10,481 nt of DNA from a virus (taxonomy: Duplodnaviria; Heunggongvirae; Uroviricota; Caudoviricetes): the IMG/VR virus record IMGVR_UViG_2690316224_000018; one strand, written 5' to 3'. This document shows positions 1 to 10,481 of the stretch, in pieces; positions within the stretch are counted from its first letter, which is position 1; every line of letters begins with the position of its first letter. A program made the position numbers and the translations under genes. The notes below the pieces were generated by a model that saw only the letters and a program-made list of their open reading frames with translations, made no database searches and was not told where the DNA came from.

Positions 1-584
1 ATCATCCACCCAACTTAACTGAAACCGGGATGAAGTATATGCATATAAAGTTCACTTTGCCAAACTTCAGTATAAAAAACCACATAAAAAATAGGGTGTG
101 ATAAAAAATACCGTAACAATAAAGCAAAGGATTATAAATTCCGTTACAGTTACAAATGATACTCAAGAAACAATTCCTTAGGAAAAACTTATTTACAGCC
201 AATAAGTAAGACACTTATATGATATCAAGTTTTCATAAAACATAACTAGGCTAAATAGCTGCGCCTAATACCGCTACACTTTTGCCAGCCCATGTTTGCC
301 TCCGGGTATTGACCCCTTCTCTACGCAACTTCAGTTCCCACCACCAACTTTGCGGCAGCTTTGTAGGATCAATGTCTAAAAGAATAATGGTGACCGATAA
401 GAAAACGACTGAATAACTGCAAATTTTCGCTCAAAACCTTCCTGTCAGATCCATAGCGAATCAAGTGCTGAATGTCACAGTATCGAACAGAAAACAGTGA
501 CGATCTAACCCTTCAAGAATATTCTACGATTGTTCTGTTTAGGAAAAGCAAGGCGGGAAGTCGGGAGATAAGTCATTGATAAAG

Positions 585-646
585 TGGCGGAGAGAGGGGG
601 ATTTGAACCCCCGGTAGAGTTGCCCCTACTCCGGTTTTCGAGACCG
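585..646 (-). tRNA. Truncated tRNA-Ser (CGA-anticodon type) 3' segment, ~62 nt from anticodon stem to CCA; probable prophage att core (attR-type junction)
   Basis: Minus-strand reading 646->585 gives CGGTCTCGAAAACCGGAGTAGGGGCAACTCTACCGGGGGTTCAAATCCCCCTCTCTCCGCCA: anticodon loop CTCGAAA, a long variable arm typical of Ser tRNAs, T-arm GGGGG-TTCAAAT-CCCCC, acceptor 3' strand and CCA. The sequence 5' of it on the minus strand (647-675) has no GGAGAGA acceptor strand or D-arm, so the tRNA is incomplete. Assignment to an enterobacterial serU-like tRNA is from memory, not a search. Confidence 0.6.
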
Positions 647-723
647 ATGATACAGAGTCGAAAAATCAAAGAGTTAAAAATTTTTCTTGGAATAAATGTC
701 TTAAAATCGTACACGAAAAATCA

Positions 724-891
724 ATGAATTACATAACATTAAAGAAGAATATTCCAAGCCTTCTTGAGGCTACTACCTGTTTTCAGGTGTCATTCAGACG
801 TGATTTGCCCCAGATTGGGAAAGCACGCTTTTTTCTCAGCTATCGTCCTCTTATTTTGCCGTTACATTTCTTTTTGCACTCTAATGATTAA
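724..891 (+). CDS. Hypothetical small ORF (55 aa, MNYITLKKNIPSLLEATTCFQVSFRRDLPQIGKARFFLSYRPLILPLHFFLHSND); possibly a gene remnant
   Basis: Hand-translated ATG(724)..TAA(889-891); below the size cutoff of the supplied ORF track. No clear Shine-Dalgarno upstream (ACACGAAAAATCA-ATG). Sits in the AT-rich cargo region, opposite in orientation to the tail genes. Confidence 0.15.
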   Translation: MNYITLKKNIPSLLEATTCFQVSFRRDLPQIGKARFFLSYRPLILPLHFFLHSND

Positions 892-1138
892 TTTACAATA
901 ATAATATCGGTAATTATTGAGTAATAATAAATTGATTATTGCAAATGTAATTTAATTCCATCTTCGCGTTATATTCCAATCTTTAATCTCCGCATGGAAC
1001 AAGTTGCATGCGTGACTATATTAAGACAACTTATAACCACCAAAACATTTGCTTTGCAAACAAAAACAGTGACCATTGACTCTAAGAAAATTCCGATCTA
1101 TTGTTAGGGTCATCAAAGTTACTTAACAGTATTCCGAA

Positions 1139-1240
1139 ATGAAAATGCAAAGCAAGCTAATTGTCTTATTAAACATTATCATTGCATTTATATTATTTGA
1201 GCTTTTAGCTCAAAAATTTGGTTTGAGCACATTATTTTAA
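1139..1240 (+). CDS. Hypothetical small hydrophobic peptide (33 aa, MKMQSKLIVLLNIIIAFILFELLAQKFGLSTLF), probably one transmembrane helix
   Basis: Hand-translated ATG(1139)..TAA(1238-1240). Possible sigma70-like promoter upstream: TTGACT (1076-1081), 17-nt spacer, TATTGT (1099-1104). Strong plus-strand terminator ~150 bp downstream. Weak or absent Shine-Dalgarno; AT-rich context makes chance ORFs likely. Confidence 0.2.
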   Translation: MKMQSKLIVLLNIIIAFILFELLAQKFGLSTLF

Positions 1241-1389
1241 AGCAAGATAAACAATATCGGGCACTCTAGTTTTTATAATTAACAATTAAACGTCCATAAA
1301 ATGTTATTTACTTTTGTTCGCTATTGTCATATCTTAATATAGTGGCTTACGCCACTCTACTTTCATCATATTTTGTACGTTTATGTACT

Positions 1390-1419
1390 CGCCATGAAGC
1401 TCTTTCATGGCGATTTTTT
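1390..1419 (+). terminator. Rho-independent terminator, plus strand
   Basis: 9-bp perfect stem CGCCATGAA (1390-1398) / TTCATGGCG (1404-1412), 5-nt loop GCTCT, followed by A-TTTTTT (1413-1419). On the minus strand the stem is not followed by a T-run, so it is unidirectional (plus). Confidence 0.5.
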
Positions 1420-1505
1420 ATTCTTAATCCAAGAACATACTCCCTATCTATAGCAAAATCACTTTTTGAACAAAAGAATAACGTATTTAGGTAATCATTA
1501 CGAAT

Positions 1506-2087
1506 TTACCCTATAGGTGCTACTGGCCATTCAATATCCTGTGCAGTTGACGTATCAACACGGTTCAGCAATACCCGATACTTTTTCCATGCTTCCAGCA
1601 ACGAGATTTCTTCCTCCGTTGCGATCTCCAGATCTACAGCATCCTGAAGTGGCGCTATATGCTCACTGGCTACCTGCATCAGGCTGTTTTTTGTTTCTTC
1701 CGCCTCCCGGATCCGGAACAGTTTTTCTGCTTCCGTATCCTTCACCCAGGCTGTGCCGTTCCACTTCTGATATTCCCCTTCCGGCGATAACCAGGTGACA
1801 TTTTCCGGTAACGAGCCAAGTTCAGAAATAAATAACGCGTCGCCGGAAGCCACGTCATAGACGGTTTTTCCCCGATGATCTTCAACGAGATGCCACGATG
1901 CCTCATCACTGTTGAAAACAGCCACAAAGCCAGCCGGAATATCTGGCGGTGCAATATCGGTACTGTTTGCTGGCAGACCTGTATGAGGCGGAATATATGC
2001 GTCACCTTCACCAATAAATTCATTAGTTCCGGCCAGCAGATTATAAATTTTTATGGTCCGTGGTTGTTCACTCATTCTGAATGCCAT
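1506..2087 (-). CDS. tfa: Tail fiber assembly protein Tfa (193 aa), chaperone for the side tail fiber
   Basis: Translation begins [54 protein letters not shown]..., recognised as lambda Tfa / Rac TfaR family. Start ATG overlaps the stf stop as TAATG (shared A at 2087), implying translational coupling. Confidence 0.9.
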
Positions 2088-5000
2088 TATGCAAGCCTCA
2101 CAATATAGTTAAATGCGATGTTTTTGACGGTGTTTTCCGCGTTACCAGCAGCGTTAACGGTGATGGTGTGTCCATGTGAACCAATCGCAACGGAGTGCGT
2201 ATGAGCACCAATACCGACAGTATGCGCGTGTGCACCTGCAGATGCTGCTGTGCCGGACAGTGAGTGGCTATGATTACCATCTGTACTGGTATTAGCTAAC
2301 CACCCCGTAGACATACCTACTGAGCCTTGTACACCCCAGGTATTTTGACCTGAGCTTGTATAACCATATTGATAAGTATCTTTAAAAACACTGGGGTTAA
2401 ATCGACGGCCATCTCTATGGCTGTGATTACCAGCTGCATTCGTGCTGCCACTTAAACTATGGGTATGCGCACCAGTGTTATTCGTGGATTTAGTGCCGTA
2501 ATCAAACGACGATGTGGTTTTCGTCCCCAAATCCGTACTGGATGCGCTGGCGCTGTGGGTATGCGATTTAATGCCATCCTGTTCCTGAGACAATACGGCA
2601 CGACCACTGGCGGGCTTGCCCTTAATCGTCCAGCCACGCATATCAGGGATCACGCCTGACGGATAAGCGGCTGCAAGTTTCGGGTAAGCAGATTTGTCAA
2701 AAGTCTGCCCCTGCATCAGGGCATAACCAGACGGAACGGTATCTGATGGCCACGGGATTGGTGCACCGACTGGATAAAACTCTGCAGGAGGATGAGCCGA
2801 GGTGTAAAGCTGCGCCCACGGCGACCAGTTTGCGTCGGTCGTATCCCGTCGTGAACGAATAAATGCCGGAGCATGAGCACCACTTGTACCACTCCAGCCG
2901 ATGAGTAACTCACCTTCGCCAACGGCTGTCATCCCTTTCAGGTGAATGATATTTCCATACGCTGTTGGATATCCGTTGTTATACACCTCGTATAACTCAA
3001 GACCTGCTGCCCCCTGCGTATTGTCTGTCAGCGCGGCTACCCGACCTTTTGAAGCCAGATTAACTGATGATACTGCTGTTCCACCTGACGGTAGCGCCCC
3101 GATCTCTGATGCCGTTGGCTTATTTCTGGAGTTATAGTCCCTTCGCCAGCCAGGTGAATAATCTGTTCCGTGATTAATATAGGTAAACTGGGCGTTGGTT
3201 GTTCCGCCACCGCTGGATGTGGTCGGAGTGGTAATGCGGATCGTCATCGCTGACTTTATCCCCATTACTTCAATGACAGCTCCGGCGAGATGAATATTAC
3301 CGCAGCCAGTATCAGTAATGATTTTATTATTGCCATAAGACCAGGAACCCTTGCACATCCAGTATGGATGGTTAAATGCTCCCTGAGAATCCAGCCACTC
3401 GATAAACTGTGCAGTCGTCCAGTTTCCTGTTGTTGTGCTTACTGACCCACCGAAGGCACGGCAGGCACCAATATTTTTCGTAAAGGTGTCTTTGCCAGGG
3501 ATATCCGCACCGTTCTGATCTTTCTGCAGACGTTTCTCAGCATTGTCATTGGCTGCTTTTACTGCCTTTGGCGTTGCCGCCAGCGTTTCAGACGTGCTGT
3601 TGGTCGCGCTGCTTAGCTGGATTATCCCTTTCTGTGCTGTCGTTGCATCCTGTGCGGTGTATTTCCCGTTAGCCAGGTCATACGCGGCCTTAACGGCTTT
3701 TGGCGTTGCCGCCAGTGACTCGGAAGTGCTGTTGGTCGCACTGCTGAGCTGTACTATCCCCTTTTTCGTCGTGCTCGCATCCTCAAGCGCCACGGCGGAT
3801 GCAATATCCTCTGCCCGTTTTGCCGCTGTCTCAGCGCGCGTTGCCGCGGATTCCGCCGTACTTTTGCTCTGAGCTGCTGCCGTCGCACTGCCAGCTGCCT
3901 CTGTCGCCTTCGTGGATGCCGTCGTGGCGCTACCCTTCGCTGCTGACGCCTGTCTGGTCGCCTCATCTTTTGAAGCAGACGCAGATGATGCCGATGACGA
4001 CGCCGAACTGGCTGACGATGCGGCAGCCGTTTTTGAGGATTCTGCGCTGGTTTCCGACGCTTTCGCGTTCGTCTCGGATGTCTTCGCTGCGGAAGCAGAC
4101 CTCGCTGCTGCGCTGGCCTGTACAGCGGCTTCGCCAGCCTTCGTTGTGGCTGTTGAAGCGGACGATGCAGCACTTTCTGCCGATTTTCCGGCGGCGGTGG
4201 CACTGGCTGAGGCCTGCCCGGCACTTGTTGACGCGGCACTGGCAGACGACGCAGCCGCTGTTTTTGAGCCTGCCGCAGCTGAGGCACTCTGTCCCGCTGC
4301 CGTTTCAGAAGCCTTGGCGTTCGTCTCGGACGTTTTTGCCGCCTTCGCAGAATTTGCTGTCGCCGTTGCCGAGGAAGCTGCGCTGCTGGCGCTCGAGGCT
4401 GCGCTCGTTTCTGATGATTTTGCCGCCTCTTTTGAAGCCGACGCATCCCGGGCTGAGGTGGCAGCTTCTGACGCTTTCGTGGTCGCGGTGGATGCTGAAG
4501 TGGCTGCTGATTGTTGTGACGCTGCCGCATTCGTTTCTGACGTTTTTGCCGCAGCGGCACTGGTGGCCGCCGCGCTTTTTGAGGACTCTGCAGCGGCAGC
4601 ACTTTTTGATGCTTCAGTGGCCTTTGCTGATGCCGTTCCTGCGCTGGAAGACGCTGACTGAGCCGACGAAGCGGCCTGTCCGGCTGACGTGCTGGCTGCG
4701 CGTGCTGAGCCTGCAGCATCAGTCGCATGGGTTGCCGCCTCACGGGCAGATGTGCCGGCATCGCCGGCTGACTTCTTCGCGGCTGCCGTGTTCTGTGCCA
4801 CTGCGGACGCGTTACGCGCCACCTCTTCCACCATCAGTTCAAAACGGCGCAGTGCCTCTGGCCGGACATCATCCTCCGTCATTGCACCGAGGAAATCATT
4901 CAGTGTGCCCGGCTTTGAGTCCTCATATACGGTGATAATCCCGGCGTGTGACGGCGGGAATCCCTCCACCAACAGACTGACGCTGTACTGACCATACTCG

Positions 5001-5158
5001 ACGTCCATTGTGTAACGCCCGGCTTCATCCGGGTTTTCTGAGGCCACTGTGTTCACCACCACCGTGGTGCTGTTGCGCCTGGCCTTTAGCTGAATGGTGC
5101 AGTTTTGTATCGGCTTACCTGCGCCATCTTTCAGTACACCTGAAATCCGTACTGCCAT
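2087..5158 (-). CDS. stf: Side tail fiber protein Stf (1023 aa), mosaic: lambda/Rac-like N-terminus, long Ala/Ser/Thr-rich repeat shaft, divergent central domain, conserved HxH-repeat C-terminus
   Basis: N-terminus [37 protein letters not shown]...[19 protein letters not shown] matches lambda Stf/StfR. Shaft (aa ~115-455) is repeats of [14 protein letters not shown] type. Conserved GI(V/I)[21 protein letters not shown] motif present twice. C-terminus [39 protein letters not shown]...GAHTHS...GNHSHS...[27 protein letters not shown]...[13 protein letters not shown]-like GGGGGG 3 nt upstream of ATG at 5158. Confidence 0.9.
3557..3763 (-). repeat. Internal tandem duplication (period ~132 nt, 44 codons) of the conserved fiber motif inside stf
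   Basis: Protein copies [27 protein letters not shown] (aa 466-492) and [27 protein letters not shown] (aa 510-536); matching DNA segments visible at ~3689-3763 and ~3557-3631. Confidence 0.6.
3796..4816 (-). repeat. Low-complexity Ala/Ser/Thr-rich coding repeat region of the Stf shaft
   Basis: About 340 codons dominated by GCN/TCN/ACN with recurring [13 protein letters not shown]-type units; it is stop-free in several frames, which produces the long overlapping phantom ORFs in the track. Confidence 0.6.
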
Positions 5159-5222: not shown

Positions 5223-5822
5223 TCAGAATTTATAACCGACACCAACGATGAAACTGTTGGTACGCCAGTCACCGCTGCCGGAGCCTTCATAAGCGACGTC
5301 AACGGCCACGGATTCGGTCGGGTTAAACTGCACGCCAGCTCCCCACGCCAGAGACGTGTTGCTGTGGCGACCGTCATCACTTCCGGTCAGCACATCGTGC
5401 GTTTTCCCCTTGTTGTCAGTTACGCGGATATAATCCCCGGAGAAAGTCGACACACGGCTGTAAGCCATACCCGCCATCGCATACGCGCTGAACCATTCAT
5501 TCACGCGCACAGACGGCCCCGCCATCACGCTGAACCAGCGATTACGCACGGAATCCTCATGCCAGCGGGTATCGCTGTAATGCGTTTTTTGCTCATCTTC
5601 AGCGTTGGCATAACTGAATGACGTAATCAGCCCCAGCGTGTCCGTAAACTCATAACGGTATTTCACGTTAATCCCGTTCAGATTTTCGCTGCCGGGAGCG
5701 TTCGTACGGGCATGAAGATACCCTGCGCTCAGTGTGGCCTGCTGCTCAGACGCCCATGCAGGCGCACCGGATACGGCCAGACAGATGGCTGCGGACAAAA
5801 TGGCTGCACAAACTTTACGCAT
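5223..5822 (-). CDS. lom: Lom outer-membrane protein (Ail/Lom/PagC family 8-strand beta-barrel), 199 aa with signal peptide
   Basis: MRKVCAAILSAAICLAVSGAPAWASE...LSAGYLHARTNAPGS...NLNGINVKYRYEFTDTLG...SDTRWHEDSVRNRWFSVMAGPSVRVNEWFSAYAMAG...VGVGYKF matches lambda Lom closely; terminal F is typical of outer-membrane barrels. SD GAGAGG 5 nt upstream of ATG (5822). Confidence 0.9.
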   Translation of the reverse strand: MRKVCAAILSAAICLAVSGAPAWASEQQATLSAGYLHARTNAPGSENLNGINVKYRYEFTDTLGLITSFSYANAEDEQKTHYSDTRWHEDSVRNRWFSVMAGPSVRVNEWFSAYAMAGMAYSRVSTFSGDYIRVTDNKGKTHDVLTGSDDGRHSNTSLAWGAGVQFNPTESVAVDVAYEGSGSGDWRTNSFIVGVGYKF

Positions 5823-5889: not shown

Positions 5890-8800
5890 TCAGCTGATAC
5901 TGATGCCTGCGGTGGCTTTCTTCATCACCACAACCAGCAAATCGCTGATACTTGCTGTGGGATACCAGTCATTTACCAGCCATGATGACACCGAAAACTC
6001 CAGCGTCATGTGGCCGCGACCAGCTGGCATATCAATAACACCACTGTAAATCAGCGTATTATCCAGCGCGGTACGGTTATAAATTTCAGCACCGTTTTTC
6101 CGTACTATCAGGCGGCATGACGAATAAATATCGTTATTCTCCCGCTCATGTTTAGCGCCGCTGAATGCCACCGCCGGAATAACAATCTGCCGGTCAAACG
6201 GCTGATCGTCATAAACCCTGACGGTGATGGTCCCTGATGGCCACCGTTCCGGTGCACGGGAGTCCCGGGGGAAAGCTTTGCCCACTGTTTTAACGAGATC
6301 GCCTTCAATCTGGTTGGCGGACAATTTTCCCAGAACCCGACAGTTCTCGTTAATCGTGACGTTGTTGAGCGCCCCGGAGTTCGCATTCACGTTACCGCTG
6401 ATATCGGCATTTTTCGCCGTCAGCCGCCCGTCCGGTGTCAGGGAAAATGCCGGAGGATTACCGCCACTGGTAATGGTCGGAGCCGTCAGGCGTTTCAGGA
6501 ACACGTCGTTCATGAATATCTGATCGCCCTGACCAACAAACATCGGCTTTGTGTTGCCATTCGCAGGATTAATCATCGCAATCCGGTCAGCAGCCAGAAG
6601 CACCTGACTCTGCATACCTGCTGGCGTATTCTCAATACCGGCTCCGATACCCGCAATATAAAGGCGTCCGTCCTTCATCTGCTGCAGTTTCACGGCCCAC
6701 ATGCTGTTCAGGTTATTATTTGTATCAACCTGAACTTTCTGTATCTGCTGGATTGCCGCACTCTGGTCTTCCAGTTTTTTATTGACGGTCTGCGTGATTT
6801 CATTGCTGACATTCGTAATGGACGTCCTGATTTCAGCCAGGTCCGGCGCAAGCTGACCGTTATCAATCTGCGTCCACAGCTCCTGGGCCAGATGTGTTTT
6901 CCCGATTTCTCCTTTGAAAAAATCCAGGTAACCTTCCGCATCATCGCTCGCCCGACCGACAGCCTCCACAAATGCCGATTTGCCAACGGTGTTCACACTG
7001 CGGATATAAAAGTAATAATCATGGCCCGGTTTGATATTGATACTGGCGGCTATCCAGTACAGCCCCGTGCCAAGGTAGCGGGCTGTGGTTTCAACCTGCC
7101 TGATATCGGTAATCCGCGTTTCCGAAAACCAGAACTCAAACTGTACCGTCGGGTCATACACCGCAAGACGCGGGACCGCTGTTATCTGAAAATAGCCCGG
7201 TGTCAGCTCAATCTGTGACGGCGCTGCCGGTGCGGCAATCCGGAACGATACCGACGCCGGATCGCCCTGCTGTCCCCGGGCATTTACCGCCCGGACTGTC
7301 AGCGTGTAACGCCCCAGCGCCAGTTGTGTGAAGCGGTATGTGGTTTCTGCCGTCCGGGCTGTGCTGACCAGCCGCTCACTGCCGTCATCCGCTGCCACGG
7401 TCAGGCGAAGCATGAAACTCACGCCCTTCACCACCTTCGGCGTGTCCCATCGCGCCAGCACCTGATATTCCCCGCTGTCTGCGGTGACTTCGGCAGTCAG
7501 GTGCTGCACTGCTGGCGGCGTGACACCATTCACCGTGCCGCTCTGGTCGCCGTCAAAGTGCGCCCCGTTATCCACGATGGCTTCTTTTTCCGGTACATGC
7601 TGCACGGCGGTGATGGCATACGTGCCGTCGTCGTTCTCACGGATACTCACGCAGCGGAACAGGCGCTGGCGCAGCGTCGGCAGCTTCAGCCCCCACACGC
7701 TGTATCCGGCAACGCCGTCAGGAACACGGCTCACTTTTACCTTCACGCCGTCGGTGACGGACTGGACCTCCACGCTGACCGGATTGCCACTTCCGTCAAC
7801 CAGGCTTATCAGCGTGGTACCGGAGGATGGCAGCGTGATTTCACGGTCGAGCGTCAGCGTCCGGGTCTGGCTGTTTACCGCCAGCACGCGCCCGCCGATG
7901 CTGATACCGGCATAGTCATCATCACAGATTTCAATGACATCGCCCGGCACATGGCGAAGCCCTTCTGCGCCCACGCTGAAGTCCACGGTCTGCGTTTCCA
8001 GCAGTTCTGTTTTAATCAGCCACAGCCCGGCGCGGTGTGCCTGCCCCCGGCTGGTACAGCCAAAAGCATCCATCTTCGTGACGTTACGACCGTAACGGGC
8101 AATGGCCTGCGTATCCTCCACAAGCTCTGTCGCCGTCTCCCAGCCGTTGTTCGGGTCAGTCCAGTTCACCTCAACGGCATTATGGCGGTCTTTCAGGGCG
8201 CTAAAGCTGTAGCGGAACGGCGCGCCATCATCCGGCATCACCACATTACTGCGGTTATAGGTCCACACCTTATCCGACGGTCGGTCCTGCACGAACGTCA
8301 GCGTCTGCCCGTTCCATACCGGCATACAGCGCATCGCCGAGCAGAAATCACTGAGCACATCCCATGCCTTGCGCTGTGTGGTCAGCCAGGCATTACAGGT
8401 GATGCGCGGCTCCGTGCCACCAAAGCCATCCGGCACCGACTGGTCGCAACTCTGGCCGATGACATACAGCGCCCATTTGTCCACATCCGCCGCACCAAGA
8501 CGTTTCCCCATGCCATAGCGCGGGTGGGTCAGCATATCCCACAGACACCAGGCCATGTTGTTGCTGTATGCTGGCTTAAACGTTCCGTCCCAGATACCGC
8601 TGTATTGCCGCGTCTGCGGGTTATAGTTCGACGGCACCTGCAGAATGCGCCCGCGAAGATGATAATTACGGCTCACCTGCTGGCTGCCGAACTGTTCCGA
8701 GTCCACCTGCACACCGACCAGTGCCGTGTTCGGGTAGCACTGTTTCACATCGATGATTTCGGTGTATGACGACCAGAGCGTTTTGTTCTGCAGCTGGTCT

Positions 8801-9369
8801 GTGGTGCTGTCCGGCGTCATCCTGCGCATCCGGATATTAAACGGGCGCGGCGGCAGGTTATCCACCACCACCGAGGCCAGATACTGCGAGGTGGTTTTGC
8901 CCTTAATGGTGATGTCTTTTTCCGTCACCCAGCCACCGTTACGCTGTATCTGAACCAGCAGGCGGACTTCCGATGGATTCCTGTCCCCCTTTGAGGTGGT
9001 TTCCACCAGTGCCTGCACACCGAAGGTAAAGCGCAGACGGTCGATGTTTGCCGACGTGATGGTGCGGGTGATCGGCGTGTCATATTTCACTTCCGTACCC
9101 AGCACCGTCTCGGAGCCGGAGGATTCAAATCCCTCCGGCGGTGTCTGCTCCTGCTCACCTGCCCGGAACACCACCGTGACGCCGGAGATGTTGGTATTCC
9201 CCTCAGTGTCCAGCACTGGCGTACTGTTCAGCAGCACGCTTTTTAATCCATCCACCGGACCTTCAATCGGCCCTTCGCTGATGGCATCGATCACACTCAG
9301 CAACTGCGTGGACTTCAGGTTGTCCTTCGCTTCGCGCGGAGTATGCCCCTTACTGCTGCCTTTACCCAT
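5890..9369 (-). CDS. J: Tail tip host-specificity protein J (central tail fiber), ~1159 aa
   Basis: From the ATG at 9369 the product starts [63 protein letters not shown]..., matching the lambda J N-terminus as recalled. The track's longer ORF (to 9414) begins at an upstream in-frame GTG and adds 15 residues not expected. SD AGGA lies directly upstream of the ATG. Fibronectin-like middle region is conserved; C-terminal region is divergent. Confidence 0.9.
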
Positions 9370-9392
9370 TCCTAACGCTCCATAAACGACAA

Positions 9393-9410
9393 AACCGCCC
9401 GGAGGCGGTT
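9393..9410 (-). other. Inverted repeat (possible weak terminator or RNA stability/attenuation hairpin) in the I-J intergenic spacer
   Basis: AACCGCC(9393-9399) / CGGA loop / GGCGGTT(9404-9410); on the minus strand it is followed by TTTTGTCGTTTAT and then the J ribosome-binding site. Confidence 0.25.
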
Positions 9411-9429
9411 TCACATAAAACGTTTTTCA

Positions 9430-10101
9430 TCAGCGACCAATCACTACAACCTGACCACCATCCCCTTCGTCTGCCGTGCTGATCTCCTGAGAGACCACCC
9501 GCGACCCCACGCGCATTTCACCGTACAGAACGGGCAGAACATTGCCCTGGGCAACCATGTTATCCAGTGAGGAGAAATAGGTGTTCTGCTTACCGTTATC
9601 CGTTGTCTGTGTACGGGGAGTTCTGGCTTTCGGTGCCAGCATCTGCGCCACACCACCGAGCACCATACTGGCACCGAGAGAAAACAGGATGCCGGTCATA
9701 CCACCGGCCCCAATGGCTGCCCCCCATGCTGCAAGGGTGGCTCCGGCGGTAAAGAATGATCCGGCAATGGCGGCAGCCCCCAGGACAATCTGGAATACGC
9801 CACCTGACTTGGCCCCGGCGACTCTGGGAACAATATGAATCACAGCGCCATCAGGCAGAGTCTCATGTAACTGCGCCGTTAACCCGGACGTGCTGACGTC
9901 CCGCCCGGCAATCCGTACCTGATACCAGCCGTCGCTCAGTTTCTGACGAAACGCCGGGAGCTGTGTGGCCAGTGCCCGGATGGCTTCAGCCCCCGTTTTC
10001 ACACGAAGGTCGATGCGGCGACCAAATCGTTGTAAATCCCCGTAAAGGCAGATGCGCGCCATGCCCGGTGACGCCAGAGGGAGTGTGTGCGTCGCTGCCA
10101 T
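9430..10101 (-). CDS. I: Tail tip assembly protein I (223 aa)
   Basis: MAATHTLPLASPGMARICLYGDLQRFGRRIDLRVKTGAEAIRALATQLPAFRQKLSDGWYQVRIAGRDV...VVSQEISTADEGDGGQVVVIGR is essentially lambda gpI as recalled (ubiquitin-like N-domain, Gly/Ala-rich hydrophobic stretch). Its start overlaps the 3' end of K by ~100 nt, as in lambda. Confidence 0.9.
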   Translation of the reverse strand: MAATHTLPLASPGMARICLYGDLQRFGRRIDLRVKTGAEAIRALATQLPAFRQKLSDGWYQVRIAGRDVSTSGLTAQLHETLPDGAVIHIVPRVAGAKSGGVFQIVLGAAAIAGSFFTAGATLAAWGAAIGAGGMTGILFSLGASMVLGGVAQMLAPKARTPRTQTTDNGKQNTYFSSLDNMVAQGNVLPVLYGEMRVGSRVVSQEISTADEGDGGQVVVIGR

Positions 10102-10481
10102 TTGTCGGTGTACCTCTCTCGTTTGCTCAGTTGTTCAGGAATATGGTGCAGCAGCTCGCCGTCGCCGCAGTAAATTGCGGCGTGATTCGGCACCGATGAA
10201 CCAAAACAGCACAGCAGCACATCGCCCGGCTGTGCCGCTGACAACGGCACCTGATACAGCCCCGTCGCCTCCAGATTATCCAGATAGAGATTCTGGCCGT
10301 TACGCCACCAGTCATCCTCACGATGAAAGTCCGGCATCTCAATCCCCGCCAGATGATAAGCATCCCGGAACAGTGTGTAACAGTCCGTCACACCGTGCTC
10401 AAAGCGCCGCCCGGTGAGATGCGGCACACAGCGGAACTTATGAATCGTCCCCCGGCAGACCAGCCACCACGGCAAATCACT
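9999..10481 (-). CDS. K: Tail tip assembly protein K (NlpC/P60-type C-terminal domain), 5' end truncated by the window edge
   Basis: The reading frame is open to the window end; the listed ORF begins at an internal Met (10475). Conserved TDCYTLFRDAYHLAGIEMPDF (Cys) and NHAAIYCGDGELLHHIPEQLSKRERYTDKWQRRTHSLWRHRAW (His) segments match lambda gpK; lambda K is ~199 aa, so the true start lies beyond 10481. Confidence 0.85.
   Translation of the reverse strand, partial: SDLPWWLVCRGTIHKFRCVPHLTGRRFEHGVTDCYTLFRDAYHLAGIEMPDFHREDDWWRNGQNLYLDNLEATGLYQVPLSAAQPGDVLLCCFGSSVPNHAAIYCGDGELLHHIPEQLSKRERYTDKWQRRTHSLWRHRAWRASAFTGIYNDLVAASTFV

Follow-up and report, generated by a model that had tools for sequence, protein, structure and literature searches.

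The closest described counterparts of the locus analysed here are the attR sites of lambdoid prophages integrated at serU, as in PP_SE11-6 of strain SE11, phage SerU-LTIIb and STEC O145:H28. These sites carry the same 62-nt serU fragment as our locus, a core of ~77-79 bp and an AT-rich arm that leads to the tail genes tfa, stf, lom and J, and they show the same pattern of host and phage alleles in the tRNA. The genuine serU locus of strain OSUCMP42NDM illustrates the complete arrangement, with zinT, yodB, serU-downstream DNA, the 62-nt serU 3′ fragment (serU′), the arm and tfa at one end, and exo, a DUF4224 gene, int, serU and mtfA at the other. This prophage measures ~40 kb, its intact serU is 90 nt long, and its arm and tail genes are those of our sequence. 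A second precedent is provided by the bio-type transducing phages of lambda, in which aberrant excision carries attR and the adjacent host DNA along with the phage. A third is CP-933H/OI-8 at thrW in O157:H7, which encodes PatE and holds the same module as the one described below. In the literature that we searched, serU is listed as an integration site, and we found no description of the relic reported here.

The sequence under study (hereafter referred to as the window) is the whole 10,481-nt stretch of a Caudoviricetes genome (IMG/VR record IMGVR_UViG_2690316224_000018), and contig CYDA01000007.1 of assembly GCA_001285085.1 ends in the same sequence with 100% identity. Most of it is occupied by tail genes on the minus strand, which were assigned by their Pfam domains: the tail fibre assembly protein Tfa (1506-2087; Caudo_TAP, E = 5.9e-44), the 1023-aa side tail fibre Stf (2087-5158; phage_tail_N, Phage_fiber_2 and Collar), a Lom/Ail outer-membrane protein (5223-5822; Ail_Lom, E = 5.7e-125), the tail tip attachment protein J (5890-9414; GpJ domains), the tail assembly protein I (9430-10101; Lambda_tail_I) and a K-like tail protein of the NlpC/P60 peptidase type (9999-10475; NLPC_P60), which is cut by the end of the window. 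The sole Rfam match at gathering level in the window, IS009 (RF02111; 1546-1744, minus strand; 222 bits against a gathering score of 117), falls wholly within the tail-fibre assembly gene. To the left of the tail genes lies the segment at 307-646. We interpret it as, very probably, the relic attR of a serU-specific lambdoid phage, with arm, core and bacterial flank, which was captured into a phage genome and is now carried as passive cargo.

The core of this relic is a fragment of serU on the minus strand at 585-646, which reads CGGTCTCGAAAACCGGAGTAGGGGCAACTCTACCGGGGGTTCAAATCCCCCTCTCTCCGCCA. All of its positions (62 of 62) agree with the 3′-terminal part of serU, the tRNA-Ser(CGA) gene of E. 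coli K-12 (L004, 3469-3530), beginning at base 2 of the anticodon stem's 5′ strand and ending with CCA. The 5′ 28 nt of serU, comprising the 5′ strand of the acceptor stem and the D-arm, are absent from the window, with unrelated phage-arm sequence in their place. A preliminary description of this DNA had recognised an anticodon-stem-to-CCA portion of tRNA-Ser(CGA) that lacked the acceptor 5′ strand and D-arm, and the comparison with serU bears this out exactly at both coordinates. Because the match forms part of 340 bp (window 307-646) that align colinearly with the serU locus of K-12 (97.4% identity, E = 3.7e-166), it is not a chance resemblance. Tested with a tRNA predictor, as the preliminary description had proposed, the window yields no complete tRNA: ARAGORN called zero tRNAs in the window, at the end of the source contig (L008) or in phage ev099, and called the intact serU in the K-12 and strain 602687 loci that served as positive controls. 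Rfam likewise made no tRNA call in the window; its low-threshold matches (a plastid 3′UTR family, sX4, mascRNA and tmRNA) merely reflect the tRNA-like T-arm. The fragment thus lacks the complete cloverleaf of a functional tRNA-Ser gene.

A difference in the variable arm allowed us to determine which copy of serU the fragment derives from. The host allele, GTAGGGGCAACTCTAC, is found in the window, in K-12 serU and in the fragments displaced at true attR sites, while the intact, integrase-side serU of two lysogens and an attP-like copy carry GTGGGGGCAACTCCAC (the phage allele); the two differ by a compensatory change from A-U to G-C. Every copy of the relic, that in the window among them, is of the host type, which identifies the fragment as the original 3′ part of the host gene and not a copy brought in by the phage. 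As at an attR, the displaced fragment is host sequence and the reconstituted gene is phage sequence, and the fragment is identical to the 3′ part of its target tRNA and is cut near the crossover. The crossover itself sits 5′ of the variable arm, inside CGGTCTCGAAAACCGGAGT, which spans the anticodon stem-loop. Recombination at serU by a tyrosine integrase is suggested by the adjacent integrase genes and by what is generally known of tRNA-targeting phages. The earlier attribution of the fragment to displacement by such a phage is thus supported, with serU as the target and the allele test in agreement. The serU-type integrase gene is annotated as frameshifted, over an equal span of 1051 nt, in three unrelated genomes (L003, 4939-5989; L007, 25796-26846; L018, 3489-4539), which could reflect a shared inactivating mutation, recoding, or a systematic effect of annotation or sequencing.

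The block common to the serU attB and the attP of serU phages comprises the 62 nt of tRNA and ~17 partly conserved downstream bases (568-646, minus strand). Its extent follows from strain 2013C-3264 (L003), where int, core and arm meet in a tandem, attP-like junction and 12 bp separate the end of the integrase gene from the start of homology to the window at 568. Citrobacter, Klebsiella and Escherichia phages match the window only from 566/570 to 647-649, over 77-84 bp, and the serU prophage of strain SE11 has been tabulated with a 77-bp att repeat (PMC2608844); both agree with a common block of about 568-646.

To the right of 646, the AT-rich P arm of a serU-type lambdoid attP extends from the core to the tail-fibre assembly gene (647-1505). 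It comprises ~860 bp, is mostly non-coding and has a GC content of 0.28-0.37. The same arm is present at a true serU attR (L006, OSUCMP42NDM) and at the int-proximal, attP-like junction of 2013C-3264, so the phage arm of the relic equals that of the cognate attP. We scored the 10.5-kb window against the IHF consensus WATCAANNNNTTR and obtained four matches, at 569-581 (minus strand), 664-676, 719-731 and 925-937. All four lie inside 569-937, against 0.35 expected, and an att site would be expected to have such a cluster around it. A stretch of 15 nt that is identical in window 662-676 and the downstream flank of thrW was considered as a possible second relic, and is better explained by the IHF-consensus sites. 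The arm also contains a small open reading frame of 55 aa (724-891, plus strand), which is annotated as a hypothetical protein in ev099 and has no Pfam match, and a strong terminator-like hairpin (1389-1413, plus strand) with an 11-bp stem followed by a T-run. Both lie on the strand opposite the tail genes, and a small transcript may arise here.

On the other side of the fragment, 278 bp of chromosomal serU-downstream DNA (307-584, minus strand) form the B′ flank, which in the chromosome faces yodB and is colinear with K-12 (L004, 3191-3468). At 307, the homology to the serU region of K-12 comes to an end. The adjoining 55 bp (252-306) are a terminal remnant of an IS630-family element with an internal truncation at 306/307, and show a 98% match to plasmid DNA (H114/L012) that carries the annotation of a C-terminal IS630-family transposase fragment. 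The 306/307 boundary appears to be a novel joint between mobile DNA and the captured piece of chromosome. In strain 602687, a 15-nt copy of the IS630 terminal sequence, 93% similar, adjoins the yagP′ pseudogene near the 3′ fragment of thrW (L001, 18593-18607).

The left end of the window (1-251, minus strand) is the upstream and promoter region of a gene for a PatE-type regulator of the AraC family, whose ATG lies immediately left of position 1. It contains a predicted sigma-70-like site at 63→34 on the minus strand, with 10 of 12 matches. The regulator has 247 aa with HTH_AraC and HTH_18 domains (L001, 19257-20000; L008, 10483-11226), and O157:H7 carries an orthologous AraC gene inside its thrW prophage remnant. 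PatE is z0321 of OI-8 (PMC10877973). By its OI-8 location and its family, the AraC gene is most probably patE, the equation with z0321 being made on the same two grounds. A search of species-representative genomes for PatE relatives, with the aim of finding a chromosomal patE beside serU in some species, found none. One sequence (H62), in which the AraC module occurs without the serU part, was considered as the ancestral state and set aside as uninformative, since it represents an IS1-mediated deletion.

Beyond the window, the source contig continues through the AraC gene, an rve_3 (IS3) remnant, a 3′ fragment of thrW (thrW′), LysR′ (yagP), paoDCBA and yagU. The thrW′ fragment has 46 nt (L008, 11716-11761; in 602687, L001, 18722-18767). 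Like the serU fragment, it is the 3′ part of a tRNA gene left by integration; unlike the serU fragment, it bounds an island and lies at its own locus, by the native genes yagP′ and paoD. Judged from this gene order, the surroundings of the window are the thrW integration hot spot and not the serU locus, an assignment that comes from the thrW′ fragment and from strain 602687, as the source contig stops inside the prophage. The right-hand boundary of the island is accordingly thrW′, ~1.2 kb left of window position 1 and ~1.9 kb from the serU relic. A 25-mer search of the window with up to 3 mismatches found no thrW attR, the thrW′ copy lying outside it. Since homology to the serU locus ends at 307 and the contig leads to thrW′ and paoD, the serU relic is not at the serU locus.

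None of the complete E. coli genomes matches the whole window above ~96%. The closest, strain 602687, is 99.9% identical over window 1-1600. In this strain, the prophage is bracketed by an intact thrW with an adjacent thrW-type integrase at one end and by thrW′, beyond the AraC gene, at the other, and the serU relic lies ~1.9 kb inside these thrW repeats. The tape-measure gene of this prophage is split by ISEc22 of the IS66 family (L001, 32088-37615), and this copy is probably defective. The native serU locus of 602687 is occupied by a different prophage, which encodes nle effectors and has its own host-allele attR by yodB and an intact serU with an integrase at its other end. This intact serU, at 2,804,567, is ~1.9 Mb from the relic.

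The relic is widespread. The block of IS3 remnant (IS3′), AraC gene and relic was found in 542 of 5426 complete E. coli genomes at a coverage of at least 80%, and a chimeric query of AraC module, intact serU and mtfA found an intact serU beside the AraC module in 0 of the 5426. In O157:H7, CP-933H at thrW contains the module as IS3′, AraC, IS630′, serU flank and serU′, with 98.6% identity to window 1-647. There it lies in a remnant prophage at thrW, followed by thrW′ and a P4-like element. Unlike the window, CP-933H is a short remnant, and its arm past 646 is unrelated (GIY-YIG, pinE and tail-fibre remnants). STEC313 carries the same module (tail genes, arm, serU′, the 278 bp, IS630′, AraC and IS remnants) in a prophage by ybhB/bioA. 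Beyond the IS remnants of STEC313, we recognised by eye a P-arm-like sequence and what we take to be a lambda-like core, TTAGTATAAAAAAG, which differs from the canonical one by a single base.

The module is also present in sequenced phages: ev099, mEp332 and PhiR70_1 contain all 2.6 kb of it with 98.7-99.2% identity, and in all three the relic lies ~2 kb from a lambda-type attP. The record of ev099 is linear and begins with the terminase genes. In it, tfa (23123-23704) is followed by the 340-bp serU-locus block (24564-24903), the AraC gene (25210-25953) and two transposase remnants, and then by the lambda attP core (26949-26963), int and xis. Among relic copies (STEC313, O157:H7 and ev099), the 340-bp block is identical at 338-340 of 340 positions, whereas relic and native loci (K-12, 602687 and OSUCMP42NDM) share only 331-332 of 340. 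The closest native match to the relic block, in strain T-HYM1, reaches 99.1% among 60 of 5948 matching records. That the relic copies are closer to each other than to native loci points to a single capture followed by horizontal spread.

In some genomes (H106-H109 and H195-H197), the serU-downstream flank is followed by just ~15 nt of the tRNA 3′ end. This indicates a second class of element at serU with a short, 3′-terminal core. It could be the TcpC island, which has been reported at serU in UPEC (PMC7545054).

Taken as a whole, the relic shares its anatomy with the attR of serU prophages and differs from it in its setting. Unlike those sites, it has just 278 bp of flank, is located away from the serU locus without a partner attL or a serU-type integrase in the same element, and lies inside the att repeats of a prophage of thrW type or lambda type. 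The serU fragment in the window is most probably inert, being neither a tRNA gene nor a current prophage boundary.

We propose that this state would have been reached in three steps. First, the integrase of a phage would recombine attP with serU inside the anticodon stem-loop, with the phage supplying a new 3′ part of the tRNA; the 62-nt 3′ part of the host gene and the DNA downstream of it would thereby be pushed to the tail-fibre end of the prophage, forming attR. Second, this attR would enter a phage genome along with no less than 278 bp of the chromosome next to it, giving the layout of a lambda bio phage: tail genes, P arm, core, bacterial DNA and novel joint. Third, the lineage would gain other att-int modules (thrW type and lambda type), or recombine with them. 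The module now resides in lambda-like phages with other integrases, of thrW type in this genome and of lambda type elsewhere, where it occupies a non-essential region that separates attP from the tail-fibre genes. Both the anatomy of the site and the allele test support the first step; the order of events and the mechanism of capture we infer.

The resemblance to lambda bio phages extends to the tail genes, the b-region/P arm, the hybrid core, the bacterial DNA on the B′ side and the novel joint, and the order holds in ev099. A hybrid att with contiguous host DNA is found within the phage genomes of ev099, mEp332 and PhiR70_1. In contrast to the bio phages, very little host DNA has been captured, and none of it is coding; the joint falls in what is left of an IS630 element, and the event is deduced from its product. 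The carriers of the relic, again unlike bio phages, have a working att-int module of other specificity, and further recombination must therefore have followed the capture. Such a change of module fits the mosaicism of lambdoid prophages, which have long homologous stretches in common and recombine among themselves (PMC7067040). The capture could have occurred by aberrant excision, or by IS-mediated or homologous exchange between prophages. The latter routes come into consideration because the 306/307 joint is an internal truncation of an IS630 remnant. No serU-type integrase remains.

Events after the capture may have been more varied than passive carriage. Two unrelated arms meet the relic at exactly 646/647 and have the same 306/307 joint, with 338 of 340 positions identical in between. 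Counted separately, arm 1, that of the window, occurs in ~224 complete genomes and arm 2 in ~417. Arm 2, the GIY-YIG/pinE arm of O157:H7, UPEC85 and others, is unrelated to arm 1; it encodes a LEM-3-like GIY-YIG protein and replaces window 647-1505 (L011, 10644-11600; L019, 7393-8342; O157:H7 and UPEC85). Because the two arms abut the relic at exactly 646/647, it may have recombined after its capture and may not be fully inert. This recombination may have been site-specific, with the relic as a portable landing pad, or homologous via the 340-bp block.

In its strongest form, the site-specific version holds that the relic is a still-active, portable secondary att site for serU-type integrases, at which arms with tail or cargo genes are swapped or tandem prophages are seeded. 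We consider this unlikely, yet it has more in its favour than any other alternative below. The full core with the anticodon stem-loop is retained, and the exact joints of both arms, with their counts, speak for such a site. Elsewhere, arm 2 follows a 23-nt sequence that mimics the serU anticodon stem-loop and resembles a short-core attP; in an e14-like prophage (L015, 4995-5020), this sequence is GGTTTTTGAGACCGGTCCGATCA, with one anticodon base changed. However, homologous recombination through the 340-bp relic and the shared tail genes would give the same pattern, and we found no genome in which a serU-type integrase adjoins the relic.

An inversion or translocation between a serU prophage and a thrW prophage would instead have moved the attR within a chromosome, so that the segment never resided in a phage genome. 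Long homologies between recombining lambdoid prophages (PMC7067040) would permit such an event. In the arm of the nle-effector prophage at serU of 602687, there is also a partial ykgJ pseudogene (L017, 6328-6416); ykgJ belongs to the chromosome on the far side of the thrW island, and this copy may be a reciprocal trace of an exchange between thrW and serU. Against this, the serU flank comprises just 278 bp, the genome that carries it also has a complete native serU locus, and no synteny breaks around thrW and serU were seen in 602687. Nor can a rearrangement of the chromosome account for the presence of the module at lambda attB and in the genomes of sequenced phages. We therefore regard this origin as highly improbable.

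The preliminary description had taken the fragment for a present junction between prophage and chromosome. Read literally, this means a live attR at the serU locus, with chromosome to the left of 585-646 and, tens of kb to its right, an intact serU and integrase. In its anatomy, 307-1505 is indeed indistinguishable from true serU attR sites, and serU is a documented integration site of lambdoid phages. The orientation proposed in that description stands insofar as phage arm and tail genes lie above 646 and DNA of bacterial origin below 585, but this DNA is native only at 307-584 and gives way to IS630′ and the AraC gene. At a live attR, native DNA would continue uninterrupted past the tRNA 3′ end; here it does so for 278 bp, and the source contig then runs on to AraC, IS3′, thrW′ and paoD. 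The expected intact copy beside an integrase, tens of kb away, is likewise missing from the far end of the 602687 prophage. That end is thrW with a thrW-type integrase, and the intact serU, 1.9 Mb away, belongs to another prophage. We give a live junction hardly any credence.

Equally implausible is a phage-borne attP copy of the serU 3′ end in an attP or tandem configuration: serU-targeting phages do carry such a copy of 77-84 bp, and a junction of int, serU′ and arm exists in 2013C-3264, but the window has the host allele, in contrast to the phage allele of reconstituted genes and of the attP-like copy, the 278 bp past the tRNA end match the chromosome in place of the integrase-side arm, and a patE-type gene is found where an integrase would adjoin.

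A relic attR captured into a phage genome thus accounts best for the window. If the relic were in addition an active landing pad, this would explain how two unrelated arms came to join a relic of single origin at the crossover boundary. It would also provide a site-specific route by which tail or cargo modules next to patE are swapped between prophages at different loci. As a corollary, specialised transduction may have brought patE into phages from a site adjacent to serU.

Fragments of tRNA genes are widely used to delimit prophages, and here this rule would misplace the boundary by ~1.9 kb. The error would drop the gene for a PatE-type regulator of virulence and acid resistance from the prophage, and would name serU instead of thrW as the integration site. 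Features of this kind are well known, and a relic hybrid att with its flank in phage genomes, linked to patE, is a modest addition to them. It does not constitute a new mechanism; it gives a date to some of what has happened to the patE region. The relic is the footprint expected of specialised transduction followed by the swapping of integrase modules, and it represents a natural and widespread case in which host DNA and a hybrid att have become fixed in phage genomes, with carriers that include O157:H7 and sequenced lambdoid phages.
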